Source: Escherichia phage 4MG
Length of the DNA stretch: 64,000 nt
Direction: 5' to 3' (one strand)
Sequence record: NC_022968.1
Shown: one piece after another, positions 10,310 to 45,907 of the stretch
Layout: every line of letters starts with the position of its first letter
How positions within the stretch are numbered: the first letter of the stretch is position 1
The notes under the pieces: generated by a model
What the model was told of the DNA's origin: nothing
Seen by the model: only the letters and a program-made list of their open reading frames with translations
Databases searched by the model: none
Made by a program: the position numbers and the translations under genes

Positions 10310-10864
10310 TTGAAACTAACGCTTGAACAACTCAACAAGATTTTTCCAGTAGGTGCATCCGCTGGGCGTAACGCAAAGTTCATTGATGCACTGAACGACT
10401 TGTTTGAGAAGGGTGGTATTAATACTGTCAACCGTATCGCCGGATTCCTCTCCCAAATTGGTGTGGAGTCTGCCGAGTTCCGTTACGTCAAGGAGCTTGG
10501 GAAGGATTCGTACTTTGATAAGTATGATACTGGCTCTATCGCAAAGCGTCTTGGTAACACCCCAGAGAAGGATGGGGATGGGGCCAAGTACAAGGGGAGA
10601 GGCCTGATTCAGGTAACCGGACTTGCAAACTACAAAGCTTGCGGTAAGGCACTTGGTCTGGACCTCGTTAACCACCCAGAATTGCTTGAACAGCCTAAGT
10701 ATGCAGTTGCCAGCGCTGGTTGGTATTGGAACATGAGAAACATCAACGCCGCTTGCGATGCTGATGATATCGTTAAGATTACCAAGCTGGTAAACGGTGG
10801 TACAAACCACCTGGCCGAGCGCACAGCCTATTACAAAAAGGCAAAATCTGTTCTAACCTCGTAA
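10310..10864 (+). CDS. glycoside hydrolase family 19 lysozyme-like endolysin
   Basis: KYKGRGLIQVTGLANYKACG matches the GH19 catalytic signature (GRGxIQ[LV]T..NY); TTG start after TAAGGAGG. Confidence 0.7.
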   Translation: MKLTLEQLNKIFPVGASAGRNAKFIDALNDLFEKGGINTVNRIAGFLSQIGVESAEFRYVKELGKDSYFDKYDTGSIAKRLGNTPEKDGDGAKYKGRGLIQVTGLANYKACGKALGLDLVNHPELLEQPKYAVASAGWYWNMRNINAACDADDIVKITKLVNGGTNHLAERTAYYKKAKSVLTS

Positions 10865-10875
10865 GGAGAACCAAT

Positions 10876-11676
10876 ATGGGAAGAAGCAAAGAGGCTCGTG
10901 CAACAAAACTGAGCGCCCGTCAACAGCAACGTGCTGAACGTCAGGCCGCTAGTCAGGCAAAGCACCACCCGAAATTCGATGAGGAACGAAAAAGCGCACC
11001 ACCGCTAGTTGCTCTGAATGAAAAGCAGCAGGATTACCTTCACAAGTTGCAGACATGCAACATTATCATCGCGAAGGGGATCTTCGGAACAGGTAAAACC
11101 TACCTTGCATCCGCTCATGCTGCCGACTTGCTGCGTAGAAACGAACTCGACAAGATCATTGTCGCTCGTCCATACGTGCAGACGGGTAAAACCTCCGGCT
11201 TCAAACCGGGTACTTCACTGGAAAAGCTGTTCCCTTACGTCCGAAATATGCTGGATACCATCCGTAAGCGTATGGGTGATGGGGCTTACTACAATGCCCT
11301 GAAGGACGGCTTGAATGGGCGTATCGAAGTTCAGGAACTGGAAAGCATCCGTGGTCGTTCATTCGACGAAAAGAGCTTCCTGCTGATCGACGAAGCGCAG
11401 CAGAGCACCCCGGAAGAAATGCTGAGTATCATCACTCGTATTTCTGATAACTGTACGCTCGTAGTCATGGGTGATGCAAGTCAGAAAGATATTCATGGTC
11501 AGTCAGGCCTTGAATGGTTGATCGAGTTCACTCAGCGTCACAATCTTGCAGGCGTGGGATCTGTTTCCTTTGATGACCCGAATGAGGATATCGTTCGTGG
11601 TGGTATGGTTCGCGACATCGCTCTTGGCCTCATGGCTGACCGCGAAGAGAAGCGCTATACCCCGATGGCTTCTTAA
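10876..11676 (+). CDS. phoH: PhoH-like ATPase
   Basis: Walker A GIFGTGKTYLA, Walker B LLIDEAQ, typical PhoH size. Confidence 0.8.
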   Translation: MGRSKEARATKLSARQQQRAERQAASQAKHHPKFDEERKSAPPLVALNEKQQDYLHKLQTCNIIIAKGIFGTGKTYLASAHAADLLRRNELDKIIVARPYVQTGKTSGFKPGTSLEKLFPYVRNMLDTIRKRMGDGAYYNALKDGLNGRIEVQELESIRGRSFDEKSFLLIDEAQQSTPEEMLSIITRISDNCTLVVMGDASQKDIHGQSGLEWLIEFTQRHNLAGVGSVSFDDPNEDIVRGGMVRDIALGLMADREEKRYTPMAS

Positions 11677-26183: not shown

Positions 26184-26327
26184 CATACTCGATCTACGGC
26201 AGAATGTCAAAAGACTCGGCCTCCCGCGAGGGGGCCTGGTACTGTTTGAAAACTAAGGTTTCTGTTGACAATGTTCAGCAGGTTATGGAATACTACGCTA
26301 AGACATGGCGATATGTGGAGAAAAGAA

Positions 26328-26576
26328 ATGAAATTGAGTGAAATCAAAAAGGTCCTTGAGCAGTCCCGCTCTAATGGTATTTATTTTCACGATAAGGGTT
26401 GGAATCAGGACCCAGGAAGTGTTCGTGGACTGGCCTACCTCTCTAAGGATGGTCATTTGTTCATGACCTACTTACACCCACTTAAAAATAGGCGTGTGGT
26501 ACGTCCATTCACGCCGGACATGGAAAACATGCTCAGACCGTCAGAGGGCCTTGTCATCTGGGAGGGTTCTGTATGA
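26328..26576 (+). CDS. hypothetical protein
   Basis: Trimmed ORF with GGAGAAAAGAA RBS. Confidence 0.45.
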   Translation: MKLSEIKKVLEQSRSNGIYFHDKGWNQDPGSVRGLAYLSKDGHLFMTYLHPLKNRRVVRPFTPDMENMLRPSEGLVIWEGSV

Positions 26577-33141: not shown

Positions 33142-34805
33142 CATTATACGCCACATCTCCTGAAGCGGGAGGATACAATCACCAGACCTGCGTGAAAGGT
33201 TGTACACCCTGTTAACATTCTGTCATGTCGATAAAACACCATTTCATAAACATATACCCCACAACATGTCGATGCTATAAACATGTCTGAAGTGACCCAG
33301 CAAATTAGCCGGGGACTAATCGCCTTGCGATATACCCACCCCTCCCCCGCCCGGAGGGAAACGTAAACAGGCCCCTCTCTTTGTGTTTTCTGGCACGAAA
33401 ATATCCTGAAGAGGCAGGGCCTCGAAGACAGGTGTTTCTGGGCGCAATCTCTATGTCTGATGTGTTAGACGGACAATCACAGCCCCTCCGGGTTGTCAAG
33501 GATCTTTACAAAATATCTGAGAGGTCTGACCACGAGACCCTATCGAGTTTTTGGCACGATGATTGCATGATGATTACGTGGCGCAACTAATGATTACAAG
33601 TGCAACTATTAGCAATGTGACAGTTTACACCTGTTACAGCACGATTTGCTCTTGACTTGCTTATATTTGTGTGAATGAGCCTATTTAACATAATACACGT
33701 TATGCGAACCACAGATCACCGGGAGACAGGCCATATAGTCACATATGTTATCATTGCATCAGTGAACCATACCACAAGGCAACCAATAGCCTGCTACATG
33801 TTACCACCACGACAGTTTCACGCTGTTATTATTCATTTTGTGGGGTGTTTTGTCGATGAGAATACAAATGATAATCATTCTGAATACGATTTCGATTTCA
33901 GTTTCGAAATGAAAACCATTCTCAAATGGAAAATATTTTGTAAATCTGCCATAAAAAGCTTGACACAGAGGGAAAAATGTGTTTAGCATTTAAGCCTATC
34001 TTGAGCATCCAACCGCAATGATAATCATTAACGTTAAGCCTTGCTACGCCTGGCTTTAATAGACTTTTCCTATCAATAAAAAGCTTGACAGTTTACACCT
34101 TTTCATGCTCAAGAAAACCGCTTTTCATCGGGCATCTAGCCCGGTTTACAACATGATTAATCATGATTTGTCAATCATTAAACATGATTAAACCGCTTTT
34201 GATCTTCATAACCTGGCGACACAATAACACGAGGGCGATCATGCGATAGCGTGATCGGTGTTATCGTGGCGAGGTTATAAAATACTTCAACTATGCAATA
34301 GTTGCATTATGAATTATTCATTGTTCTAGTCATCTTGTCTGTTAACGCTTAGGCGCTAACGAGCCACGATAACGCGAACGAAAACGATATTTATTATCGT
34401 TTGAGTTACCCTCGTGTTATTGTGTCGCTCGCTCCGCTCGCGCCACTCACCCCGATAACGCGAACGATATTTTTATTTGACAAAAGATGATTACTATGCT
34501 CAAAAAAGACAGTTCACACAAAGGGTTAGATGAGAAAAGTTATCATTTCAGGGCTTTTGCTTCGTATTCACTCAATTTGCATAAAAACACGGTGTTTATT
34601 CACTTGATAACCTGCGTTATCATTTTTGGGGTGTGAGTGAGTCAAAGGCGGGTAATGATACACGATTAAACGCAATATAACGCGTTTTGAGAGGGTTTAT
34701 CTGTTAGGCTTGCCGTTGTATGGCTTCAAAGAGATCTCTTTAAATTCACTTTTTTGCATAAAGACGGGTAAAGATTTAGTGTTTTGTTTGGGGTGTTGGT
34801 ATGAT

Positions 34806-34852: not shown

Positions 34853-35062
34853 TCAGATAAACATTGCAGCATAATGATCGTAAAGGTCTTGCGCTTGTCT
34901 GGCAGGCCAGCGGCTTTCATCCACCGGGACACGTAGATCAATCGGGCGGCGATCTTTCAATCCGTTAACATGAAAAAATGTTTCACCTGTAAGCTGTACG
35001 ATCTCCAGTTTAACGAGGTTGTCAGAATCTTTTACGGTCTGCTGAATGAGAATAGTAGTCAT
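34853..35062 (-). CDS. hypothetical protein
   Basis: Trimmed ORF; minus-strand GTGGAG RBS. Confidence 0.45.
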   Translation of the reverse strand: MTTILIQQTVKDSDNLVKLEIVQLTGETFFHVNGLKDRRPIDLRVPVDESRWPARQAQDLYDHYAAMFI

Positions 35063-35068
35063 TTGCAA

Positions 35069-35945: not shown

Positions 35946-36358
35946 AATAGCTCTTTACATAACTTTACACTATTCACTGTTTGCATCTTTATGCATCGCT
36001 ATGCAATTCATTTCATGGTGAAATTACTTTTTAGGCGTTTTTCCGTGTCAAGCTATTTTTATATAGCCTTTAAACGTCCTGTAACGCGTTTTAAGCGGTT
36101 TTGCGTCCAGGCTGTACCCTAGCCCGTTTTAACGGAGATCTCCCCATATTCACTATTTTGCATAGGATTTGAGGGTGTAGTGATAATCATTCTCATCGCC
36201 CAGCGATTAGCCCCCGGCTAACTATCTAAATGATAGTGATTCTCATTACCGGAATAACAGGCACCTCCGGTGGCTTTCCTCCGGTGTCCATCGTTGCCGC
36301 TTCCACAAAAGAATAACAAAAACCGGGACAGAAAACAAGCCCCGGAATTGTAAAGATT

Positions 36359-36676
36359 TTAGCGGATATTTATCCCGGCGGGTAGCCAGTAGCCAGAATA
36401 ATGATCATGAGGTGTGAACCCGTGGGACGGCTTTATATATGTAACTGATAACCATTCTCGATCATCCAGATAAAGCGCCTCATCTATTGCCACCACAAAA
36501 CACAATTCACCTTCACGATCTTTAACGGTTGCGATAGCGTGTTTTTCTATCGCCTTTTCAAGTGCAGCCAGGCCGCGCCGGAATTGTTCCGGGCGTGTGC
36601 GGTAACCTAAGTTATCCTCAGGGCAAAGTCTGTTTAAGGTAGCCCAGCTAACCGCAATCATTTTTTGAAGTGTCAT
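36359..36676 (-). CDS. hypothetical protein
   Basis: Trimmed to ATG with minus-strand AAGAGG RBS. Confidence 0.45.
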   Translation of the reverse strand: MTLQKMIAVSWATLNRLCPEDNLGYRTRPEQFRRGLAALEKAIEKHAIATVKDREGELCFVVAIDEALYLDDREWLSVTYIKPSHGFTPHDHYSGYWLPAGINIR

Positions 36677-36686
36677 TGTCTGCCTC

Positions 36687-37163
36687 TTATCTGTAACGGT
36701 GCATTGATTCACGATAGACCGATCCGCCGTCGAACTTCTCCGCACTTCTCAGGGCGTCCACTAGCTCGCACATTTTGCGGAGTACATACGAACAATGATC
36801 ATTAAAGTCAATGGCTTTTTTAATCATTTCCTCTTTACTCTCCCCATCAATAAAGACAAGTTGATCAAGGGCGTTATAGTGATCAAGCCAGGCGCGGATC
36901 GCGTCATGCTCCAGGGGGCGATCTGTCTGGCTAAAACTTGACAGGCCGAAAGATTCAAAAGTGTTTACATTGTCCATTAATTCATCATAAGCGGTTTCCC
37001 AGCTACTAGCCCAGAACTCAACCGCATCAGATTGAAAATCAGGATCATCAGGGTCAATAAAACAGATTGAAAAAAGTTGCAGGCCTTCACGCTTTGTTAA
37101 GGTATAGCGAGCACTATCAAGGGCGCGTGTTTTGGTGTCTTCTGGGGTGATTTCATATTTCAT
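36687..37163 (-). CDS. hypothetical protein (start uncertain)
   Basis: Track ORF trimmed to internal ATG. Confidence 0.4.
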   Translation of the reverse strand: MKYEITPEDTKTRALDSARYTLTKREGLQLFSICFIDPDDPDFQSDAVEFWASSWETAYDELMDNVNTFESFGLSSFSQTDRPLEHDAIRAWLDHYNALDQLVFIDGESKEEMIKKAIDFNDHCSYVLRKMCELVDALRSAEKFDGGSVYRESMHRYR

Positions 37164-44908: not shown

Positions 44909-45100
44909 ATGGAAAACGGGAAAGTAGTTGCAAGCGAAACAATGGTAACCCTGTACACCTGGGAGAGTGAGCGCGGAGCGCCCCAGGTTAGGATCGTGCC
45001 TTTGCCGTTTGCAGAACGTGCGAGCGTGTCCGGGTTTTACTATGGCACAAAGGCGGTGAGTGAGTCCGGCGCGGTGTTATGGGATAGCAGGGAAGACTAA
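44909..45100 (+). CDS. hypothetical small protein
   Basis: Trimmed to ATG after AGAGAGGTAAACGAA. Confidence 0.4.
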   Translation: MENGKVVASETMVTLYTWESERGAPQVRIVPLPFAERASVSGFYYGTKAVSESGAVLWDSRED

Positions 45101-45120: not shown

Positions 45121-45149
45121 TTGCAATCCGTGCGGCCCTGGGTTATATT
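45121..45149 (+). promoter_or_regulatory. sigma70-type promoter with no ORF downstream
   Basis: TTGCAA - 17 nt - TATATT, preceded by a second copy of AAAATCTTTTTGCC; no RBS-led ORF follows. Confidence 0.45.
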
Positions 45150-45475
45150 TATCAGACAGAAGAGAAAACGCCACTCCACGGCGAAAAGGCGGGGCTAACG
45201 TACCGGGCGCGGGTGCCAGGTCGGAAGGTGGATCGCCGGTAGTTCGTCTGAATGACATTTGTAAAGATTTGTAAAGATGGTTGATCCTGGGGTTGGTTCT
45301 GCTATTATTATCACATAGCGGGAACATTGAAACCGGAGTACAAAACACCGGGGGTGCCTGTCATTCTGCAAATGATAATGATTATCATTCAACAAGCTAA
45401 ATGAGAATGCTTCTCATTCCGCATAAAAATTTATCTTGACATCGAGTGTGCTTGTGTGAGAAAATTATTGATCCC

Positions 45476-45681
45476 AAAAAATTTTTTCGCGTCTATAGAA
45501 AAAATACGTTTTTGAAACTGAAAAGTCGATCGAGAACCGGGCGCAAAAATTTTTTCGAGAGCGAGAAAAAATACGATCTCGATTTTGAAAAATCGATCGA
45601 GAACCCAATCTCTACCGAGAAAAATTTTTTGAGCAGTATAGAAAAAATACGATCTTGAAAACGAAAAAGTGATCGAGTACC
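45476..45681. repeat. three imperfect tandem direct repeats (~62 bp unit)
   Basis: Units at about 45476, 45545 and 45621 sharing AAAAATTTTTTCG...AGAAAAAATACG...TCGATCGAGAACC. Confidence 0.7.
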
Positions 45682-45907
45682 TGAAGTTTTACTCCCGAAA
45701 TATTGGAGATAAGTTTTGCAGTTTTTTGAGATATTTGTCCAGATGTGACAGTTGTTTTTGCAGTAAATTCATACAGTTACGTGCATGTTTTTGAGATATG
45801 TGGCAGGTTGTTTTCGAGATCTTTATTCACAAAATATTGGATTTACCTGGACACTTCAGCAGAGGCCGTTTCGAAAACCATTTCGATTTTCATTTTGATT
45901 TCTGGTT

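Follow-up and report, generated by a model that had tools for sequence, protein, structure and literature searches.

The window analysed here is a stretch of 64,000 nucleotides from Escherichia phage 4MG (sequence record NC_022968.1), a myovirus of the Vequintavirinae. Near its position 45,400 lie two 19-bp palindromes that resemble the Fur boxes of Escherichia coli, the operators of the host's iron regulon. A sequence-only reading had picked them out, along with related palindromes elsewhere in the window. It proposed that they couple phage gene expression to host iron status or titrate Fur, and, as an alternative, that they are the operators of a phage regulator. Over the region tested, the window shares 90% identity with Escherichia phage LNA4 and 87.5% with Cronobacter phage GAP31; a 148,567-bp IMG/VR contig is identical to it at the 45.4-kb locus.

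From upstream to downstream, this locus holds the following features.

44909-45100, plus strand: small open reading frame (ORF) of 63 amino acids, DUF7170 / phrog_4653, the lone plus-strand ORF just upstream of the locus.
45121-45149, plus strand: promoter P0, TTGCAA-17-TATATT, from a promoter scan; upstream of element A and kept across genera.
45157-45250, plus strand: element A, GC-rich, about 90 nt, transcribed from P0, highly conserved in Vequintavirinae and Stephanstirmvirinae.
45257-45278, plus strand: direct repeat TGTAAAGAttTGTAAAGA, found by Tandem Repeats Finder, directly 5' of the -35 hexamer of P1.
45281-45308, plus strand: promoter P1, TTGATC-16-TATTAT with a TG extension, from the promoter scan; position and sequence kept across genera.
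45313-45370, plus strand: leader, element B, about 58 nt, conserved; it contains CACCGGGGGTGCC and ends in ATTCTGCA right at box 1.
45371-45389, no strand: box 1, AATGATAATGATTATCATT, a perfect 19-bp palindrome with a perfect 7-1-7 Fur core; 25.3 bits on the matrix described below, 0 mismatches to TGATAATNATTATCA.
45400-45418, no strand: box 2, AATGAGAATGCTTCTCATT, 29 bp past box 1; 19.6 bits.
45436-45465, plus strand: promoter P2, an A-tract and then TTGACA-18-GAAAAT with TG, from the promoter scan; 17 bp past box 2 and pointing into the iterons.
45476-45690, no strand: iterons, three A/T-rich tandem repeats of about 65-70 bp, each ending in a GATC-containing core, GATCGAG(A/T)AC.

Every palindrome quoted in the sequence-only reading is present in the window, with coordinates that agree to 1-2 nt: 45371-45389, 45400-45418, 33867-33885, 34017-34035, 36179-36197 and 36229-36247. 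These sites are non-coding, as had been claimed; any ORF that overlaps one of them in the window or in GAP31 lacks conservation between these two phages. The scan adds sites at 33861, 33908, 34383 and 34529 to that list. Two further matches are coding, one at 35045-35063 (the N-terminus of a small minus-strand gene) and one at 36444-36462 (within ORF 36359-36745).

A 19-bp Fur matrix was learned afresh by unseeded palindromic expectation-maximisation, using each second 19-mer as a start. The training set consisted of 15 intergenic control regions of classic Fur-repressed operons in E. coli K-12 (fepA-fes, fepD-entS, fepB-entC, fhuA, fecI, fecA, cirA, fiu, tonB, exbB, ryhB, fhuE, fhuF, sufA and fur). 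This procedure converged on AATGATAATCATTATCATT, which is the phage palindrome in identical register. On their own matrix, the E. coli operators score from 7 to 21.5 bits, the best being ryhB at 21.5. Box 1 scores 25.3 bits, the maximum that the matrix allows. Weight-matrix scoring had been proposed along with the sequence-only reading, and by this measure the top window site exceeds all 15 operators used for the matrix. That the best site is the consensus of a matrix learned from E. coli operators gives the Fur-box-like identity strong support at the level of sequence.

Other sites in the window also score highly: 21.6 bits at 36229-36247, 19.6 at 45400-45418, 18.6 at 33867-33885 and 17.4 at 34017-34035. 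At a threshold of at least 16 bits there are 10 window sites (0.01 expected from composition-preserving shuffles), and at one of at least 14 bits there are 11 (0.17 expected). In roughly 79 kb of E. coli K-12 DNA that was not part of the training set, no site reached 14 bits. Simple consensus searches give a similar picture. With up to 3 mismatches, TGATAATNATTATCA has 19 matches against 4.2 expected, a number reached in 0 of 100 dinucleotide-preserving shuffles. The classical Fur 19-mer GATAATGATAATCATTATC, again with up to 3 mismatches, has 3 matches against 0.02 expected from such shuffles; this means that three window positions match the classical consensus at 16 of 19 letters. In a degenerate-consensus scan, 9 sites agree at 15 or more of 18 letters, where 0.2 are expected. 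Chance or A/T-richness as the cause of the boxes is ruled out by dinucleotide shuffles, block shuffles and the real-DNA background. In addition, pairs of sites offset by 6 bp, as in the fepA, fiu and fhuF operators of E. coli, occur at window 33861/33867 and elsewhere.

All ten sites of at least 16 bits fall within two places, 33.86-36.25 kb and 45.37-45.42 kb. The first of these holds the following.

33861-33885, no strand: double box AATACAAATGATAATCATTCTGAAT, two 19-mers 6 bp apart; 16.3 + 18.6 bits.
33908-33926, no strand: box AATGAAAACCATTCTCAAA, 16.9 bits, 33 bp 5' of the -35 of the promoter at 33960; kept in GAP31 and LNA4.
34017-34035, no strand: box AATGATAATCATTAACGTT, 17.4 bits, at about +30 from the promoter at 33960-33989 (promoter scan).
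34383-34401, no strand: box AACGATATTTATTATCGTT, 16.7 bits, between the arms of a perfect 20-bp inverted repeat with a 173-nt loop; GAP31 and LNA4 have the identical box.
34529-34547, no strand: weaker box GATGAGAAAAGTTATCATT, 13.5 bits, downstream of a TTGACA at 34477.
36179-36197, no strand: distal box of a paralogous minus-strand cassette, 16.7 bits, from the cassette alignment.
36229-36247, no strand: proximal box of that cassette, AATGATAGTGATTCTCATT, 21.6 bits.
36248-36345, minus strand: paralogue of P1 and leader B, aligned with window 45270-45425 and with two rV5 units.

The double box at 33861-33885 is kept in GAP31 (19.2 + 18.6 bits) and in LNA4. Between 33.8 and 34.6 kb, the boxes again stand between tandem sigma70-like promoters with A-tract upstream elements. 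The promoter-leader-box cassette as a whole is repeated: a minus-strand paralogue occupies window 36170-36345, where the leader at 36248-36305 aligns to the 45.3-kb leader, and rV5 has two tandem units. The proposal that the palindromes act on phage gene expression needs one change in the light of this layout. The boxes lie off the promoters of protein genes, inside two ORF-free control regions.

The same part of the window has other repeats. The perfect 20-bp inverted repeat at 34216-34235 / 34409-34428 (GCGACACAATAACACGAGGG / CCCTCGTGTTATTGTGTCGC) sits in an ORF-free region of about 1.7 kb and looks cruciform- or origin-like; the 173 nt that it encloses are rich in smaller palindromes, one of them a Fur-type box. 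At 34150-34193, downstream of a promoter at 34085, there are A/T palindromes and 10-bp repeats (ACATGATTAATCATGAT ... AACATGATTAAAC) that are not of the Fur type. A module of about 95 bp occurs at 34666-34760 and at 36070-36164, 1404 bp apart and with identical spacing, near a strong minus-strand promoter at about 36047-36052. This suggests duplicated regulatory cassettes in the early region.

Twelve phages were compared: the window, LNA4, GAP31, PVP-SE1, KpS8, CR3, phiTE, pEa_SNUABM_56, rV5, Mt1B1_P17, KKP_3264 and 2L372X. Of these, Mt1B1_P17 and KKP_3264 belong to the Stephanstirmvirinae, and 2L372X is an Aeromonas Plateaulakevirus. Members of the Vequintavirinae and Stephanstirmvirinae share one layout, which runs from P0 and element A through the TGTAAAGA direct repeat and P1 to the leader B of about 58 nt, ending in ATTCTGCA. 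Then follow 1-6 boxes at a 29-bp period, an A-tract, P2 in some genera, and three lineage-specific A/T-rich iterons of about 65 bp. The 29-bp period is kept in LNA4, GAP31, KpS8, rV5, CR3, phiTE and Mt1B1_P17; PVP-SE1 and pEa56 have only one box at the 45.4-kb locus. Aeromonas phage 2L372X keeps the order of promoter, leader, box and repeat. Equivalent yet lineage-specific repeats follow the box array in 12 of 12 phages.

When 250 bp of the locus serve as a BLAST query, 344 phage records match. In the deepest comparisons, with rV5-like phages and the Aeromonas phage, the part that can be aligned consists of the boxes and at most about 30 nt of upstream flank. Element A can serve as an anchor that is independent of the boxes: all 17 distinct loci found through it carry a box of 18.4-25.3 bits, at a fixed offset. 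Whole-genome scans at a threshold of at least 14 bits were made of LNA4 (147.6 kb) and of an rV5-like genome, MG065646.1 (137 kb). They return 8 and 5 sites respectively, all within the same two loci, 10-12 kb apart. Such a restriction rules out the boxes as a general early-promoter operator. In MG065646.1, the second box cluster (26307-26459) lies in the sole multi-kb ORF-free region of the genome (24955-28013). The idea that the module came from the host was rejected: in 5,426 E. coli genomes it has no homologue except short matches to the box itself.

Some of the records deserve a remark. About 20 GenBank entries named as Campylobacter phages, MG065646.1 among them, are rV5-like or phAPEC8-like coliphages by taxonomy line and by sequence. 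Their host labels look wrong.

The flanking elements are conserved as well. The TGTAAAGAttTGTAAAGA repeat is kept in every Vequintavirinae or Stephanstirmvirinae locus compared, has a further copy at window 36349-36362, and is possibly the site of another regulator. For element A, RNAalifold gives hairpins with one compensatory pair. In Erwinia phage pEa56, a pseudoknot-like CCCC/GGGG pairing changes to CCAA/TTGG, and G-U pairs favour the plus strand. Element A matched no Rfam family and is a candidate for a new structured phage RNA. More generally, Rfam found no known RNA family at the gathering score. The only match near the boxes is PrrF, which is non-significant (E = 9.5) and aligns to the Fur-box-like 5' end of the PrrF model. 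Element B has a weak consensus RNA structure, in which G-U pairs again favour the plus strand.

Transcription from the other strand was also considered. A candidate Fur-repressed minus-strand promoter over box 1 (TTGAAT-18-CAGAAT) is weak and is not kept in the paralogous cassette. An antisense small RNA from that promoter to a predicted minus-strand terminator at 45183-45169 was rejected too, given the plus-strand preference of the G-U pairs in elements A and B. The DUF7170 ORF upstream has a promoter paralogous to P0 and is kept in several of these phages, and the Aeromonas phage has a small plus-strand ORF at the equivalent place.

The boxes are themselves transcribed from P1 and stand at the end of a conserved leader, and each could in principle form an A/U-rich hairpin. 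They might then be terminators or processing signals at the 3' end of short leader transcripts. The hairpins would however have A/U-rich stems with loops of 1-3 nt and no U-tract directly after them, and the terminator scan makes no call at the boxes. In many boxes the two half-sites differ (TGAGAAT + TGATAAT), an asymmetry that is itself conserved. In the hypothetical hairpin, the inner pairs are therefore mismatched in most copies, and the outer pairs are invariant, which leaves no covariation. An RNA role of this kind is scarcely credible. Since the unlike half-sites leave hairpin pairing unkept, the boxes are protein-binding DNA sites rather than RNA signals.

Which protein would bind them? 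All informative positions of the boxes agree with the E. coli Fur matrix, and host Fur would be the most economical reader. Across three phage taxa the boxes hold the Fur consensus while the adjoining iterons and leaders diverge. A conserved host protein as the reader would lead one to expect just this. It is likely that the arrays are bound by host Fur-Fe2+.

The alternative from the sequence-only reading, a regulator made by the phage, would have the boxes as operators of a protein that resembles or mimics Fur in specificity and that switches the non-coding promoters or the origin independently of iron. Several things speak for it: the boxes occupy phage control regions next to phage-specific iterons, and most ORFs of these phages are without known function. 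Yet the informative positions all coincide with a matrix made from E. coli only, of which the top site is the consensus. The iterons, which would be the likeliest targets of a phage protein, are divergent where the boxes are invariant. A tblastn search found Fur homologues in 31 phage records, none of them Vequintavirinae, and on this result a phage-encoded Fur was set aside for these phages. The DUF7170 protein beside the locus, the only product of an ORF without known function to be screened, is unlikely as a box binder, being acidic and without a DNA-binding domain match. The absence of a Fur homologue by tblastn and the presence of consensus boxes beside diverged iterons weaken the phage-regulator alternative, and on balance it is unlikely. 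Further points in its favour coincide with the objections to host Fur that are given below.

With host Fur as the reader, a mechanism can be sketched. The palindromes would be high-affinity Fur-Fe2+ operators that the phage maintains, in phased arrays, within its two ORF-free control regions. At 45.4 kb, transcription from the sigma70 promoter P1 would pass through the leader of about 58 nt and run directly on into the array, the end of which is 17 bp ahead of the -35 of P2. Both P1 and P2 would be aimed at the A/T-rich iteron block. In iron-replete cells, holo-Fur on the array would block elongation from P1 (and P0) and would cover the upstream A-tract region of P2. Fur occupancy would in this way gate non-coding transcription into the iterons; at low iron, apo-Fur would depart and transcription would pass. 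A side effect would be the sequestration of Fur by these sites as copies of the phage DNA accumulate. We give this combined model, gating by Fur-bound arrays with Fur sequestration on the side, about an even chance. Four of its elements are inferred: the identity of the protein as Fur, its action by roadblock or occlusion, the direction of the response to iron, and what the iteron block is.

A number of observations weigh against host Fur and against this use of it. In classical Fur repression, the box overlaps the -35 or -10 and excludes RNA polymerase. The phage boxes do not overlap the -35 or -10 of a sigma70-like promoter: they lie at +56 to +103 from the P1 start, and relative to the start of P2 their centres are at about -63 and -92. 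P2 itself is kept in the Seunavirus/Mydovirus group, not in all genera. No iron-related gene adjoins the boxes; the flanks are ORF-free or encode small proteins of no known function, with DUF7170 as the nearest conserved ORF. It is also not obvious how a phage that needs an iron-dependent ribonucleotide reductase would benefit from blocking transcription under iron-replete conditions.

Then there is the matrix itself. A matrix made from the phage boxes (36 distinct sites) agrees with the Fur matrix cell by cell (r = 0.965) and in its information profile, in a comparison that is partly circular, the sites having been selected with the Fur matrix, and in which many phage sites are orthologous or paralogous and hence not independent. 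A difference is seen at position 6. G is the commonest substitution in the phage boxes there and also the second choice of E. coli Fur, but the phage boxes prefer it over T (0.56 vs 0.20 in E. coli). This preference could mark another protein. The unusual positions, the G at position 6 and the lack of iron-related genes close by are also what can be said further for a phage protein.

If Fur does bind, it need not gate anything. The phage genome could simply be a Fur sponge, in which the hundreds to thousands of strong sites on replicated genomes titrate Fur and derepress the host iron-uptake regulon, the location of the boxes being incidental. The derepressed uptake would supply iron for phage nucleotide synthesis. 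Multicopy Fur boxes derepress the Fur regulon, which is the principle of the Fur titration assay (FURTA). With 16.3-25.3 bits, the roughly ten strong sites per genome equal or exceed the better of the training operators (7-21.5 bits), and the number of boxes per array varies from 1 to 6 by lineage, as a dosage trait would. There is also a virulent Pseudomonas myovirus, PAK_P4, that strongly induces host iron-uptake genes (PMC5563952). A decoy does not need strict placement after a promoter-leader cassette, however, nor a fixed offset of box 1 or 29-bp phasing, and PVP-SE1 and pEa56 have a single box left at the 45.4-kb locus. As the main task of the boxes, titration is quite improbable.

The gated transcription of the combined model would lead into the iterons, which read aaaaattttttcg ... 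agaaaaaatacg ... GATCGAGaac, with one GATC site each. The block is probably a replication origin, as a candidate, and less probably a packaging site. GC skew was uninformative as an origin map, confounded as it is by the direction of transcription and by the start points of the records. Fur, or another protein that binds the boxes, might then be an architectural accessory for an origin or packaging complex on the iterons, by analogy with IHF at lambda cos or P1 pac. The array abuts the GATC-containing iterons directly. In lambdoid prophages, a group unrelated to these phages, 23 of the 128 perfect boxes in IMG/VR are 32-35 bp from a lambda-cosN-like GGGCGG[CG]G, with an O157:H7 prophage as one example. 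Fur is not known as an architectural factor, which counts against the idea. The GenBank record of EC152 begins at window position ~45671, just past the last iteron, which would suit a terminus there; this start may be arbitrary, and as a physical terminus it is uncorroborated by other records.

The second box locus of rV5-like phages, in the sole multi-kb ORF-free region, also speaks for an architectural role. For phage Bas54, an intergenic region of about 2 kb has been reported in which no transposon insertions are tolerated (10.1101/2025.11.20.689424). By inference, the ORF-free region of the rV5-like genome is probably this insertion-intolerant region, and it is probably also the 'non-coding' block of the rV5 paper. 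That paper could not define the origin, a point against the architectural role, and leaves iron unmentioned (PMC3606486). Taken together, a purely architectural Fur is very unlikely.

A broader proposal would have Fur recruited to phased arrays at essential gene-free hubs, probably the replication origin, of Vequintavirinae, Stephanstirmvirinae and related phages. Replication initiation, or the non-coding transcription that drives it, would become conditional on iron, and Fur would also be drawn off the host regulon. This is put forward tentatively, and we regard it as doubtful. If Fur does act at such hubs, the cosN-near boxes of lambdoid prophages would be a second, independent co-option of Fur at a phage DNA-processing site.

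Perfect boxes elsewhere can be placed beside this. The 128 perfect IMG/VR boxes represent 49 sequence contexts. The best match in the E. coli genomes is an exact AATGATAATGATTATCATT in an O157:H7 lambdoid prophage (NZ_CP017442.1), between the lysis genes and the small terminase. There are hints here that Fur-type boxes recur at phage DNA-processing sites. An unrelated array, of seven perfect tandem Fur-type boxes mostly at a period of about 89 bp, is found at 10812-11322 of IMGVR_UViG_3300033068_002045, at the end of an 11-kb viral contig.

Near-perfect Fur boxes, conserved in two gene-free regions of numerous virulent enterobacterial phages, suggest that these phages read or manipulate the iron status of the host. 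The operator type is itself known; what appears to be new is to find it in lytic phages, in phased arrays at non-coding hubs that look essential. Phages of this group are frequent in the gut, infect a broad range of hosts and have a use in phage therapy. Should Fur bind, a host transcription factor would give them a direct means of sensing or rewiring the iron homeostasis of the cell, with a bearing on phage efficacy at iron-limited infection sites. That such rewiring does occur is shown by PAK_P4 and its induction of host iron-uptake genes (PMC5563952). Fur binding would be one way to account for the so far unexplained induction of such genes by some lytic phages. It would also provide an experimental handle on a multi-kb intergenic region that is apparently essential in rV5-like phages.

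Fur operators are not new, and neither are Fur boxes on phages. Like the chromosomal operators of enterobacteria (ryhB, fecI, sufA, fhuF, fepA-fes), the phage boxes are 19-bp palindromes of the form AATGATAATNATTATCATT with a 7-1-7 core and the same variable positions. They share the overlapping matches offset by 6 bp, and their scores are equal or higher. Unlike the chromosomal operators, they sit off the -35 and -10 of iron genes and prefer G at position 6. Their setting is a virulent phage, where they form phased arrays (29 bp, 1-6 copies) flanked by tandem promoters of non-coding transcription.

Phage Fur boxes have so far been tied to the cargo genes of temperate phages, and a conserved array in the core control regions of virulent phages would differ from that. 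On Stx1 phages, stx1 is a cargo gene under a Fur box. On lambda phages of the infant gut, a Fur box controls the cargo sitABCD (PMC6969025). What such boxes have in common with those described here is that a box carried by the phage would connect phage DNA with the iron regulon of the host. The cargo boxes are single and belong to lysogenic-conversion promoters, whereas those described here serve no cargo gene and are found in a virulent phage, within core non-coding regions conserved across subfamilies. The literature yielded no link between Fur or iron and the Vequintavirinae or the control regions of virulent phages.

Host-factor sites are well known in other phage regions: IHF binds at lambda cosB and at P1 pac, and a promoter with an unwinding element is found at T4 oriF/oriG and at the T7 primary origin. 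The 45.4-kb locus resembles such origin and packaging regions in having promoters that fire into A/T-rich repeats beside host-protein sites, and its GATC repeats recall those of P1 pac. It differs in that the implied host protein is Fur, which is not known in such a role.

Multicopy FURTA plasmids, finally, also place many strong boxes on a high-copy replicon, and derepression of the Fur regulon would likewise be expected from the phage. Unlike these plasmids, the phage arrays are a natural and evolutionarily conserved element, with positional constraints beyond the needs of a simple decoy.

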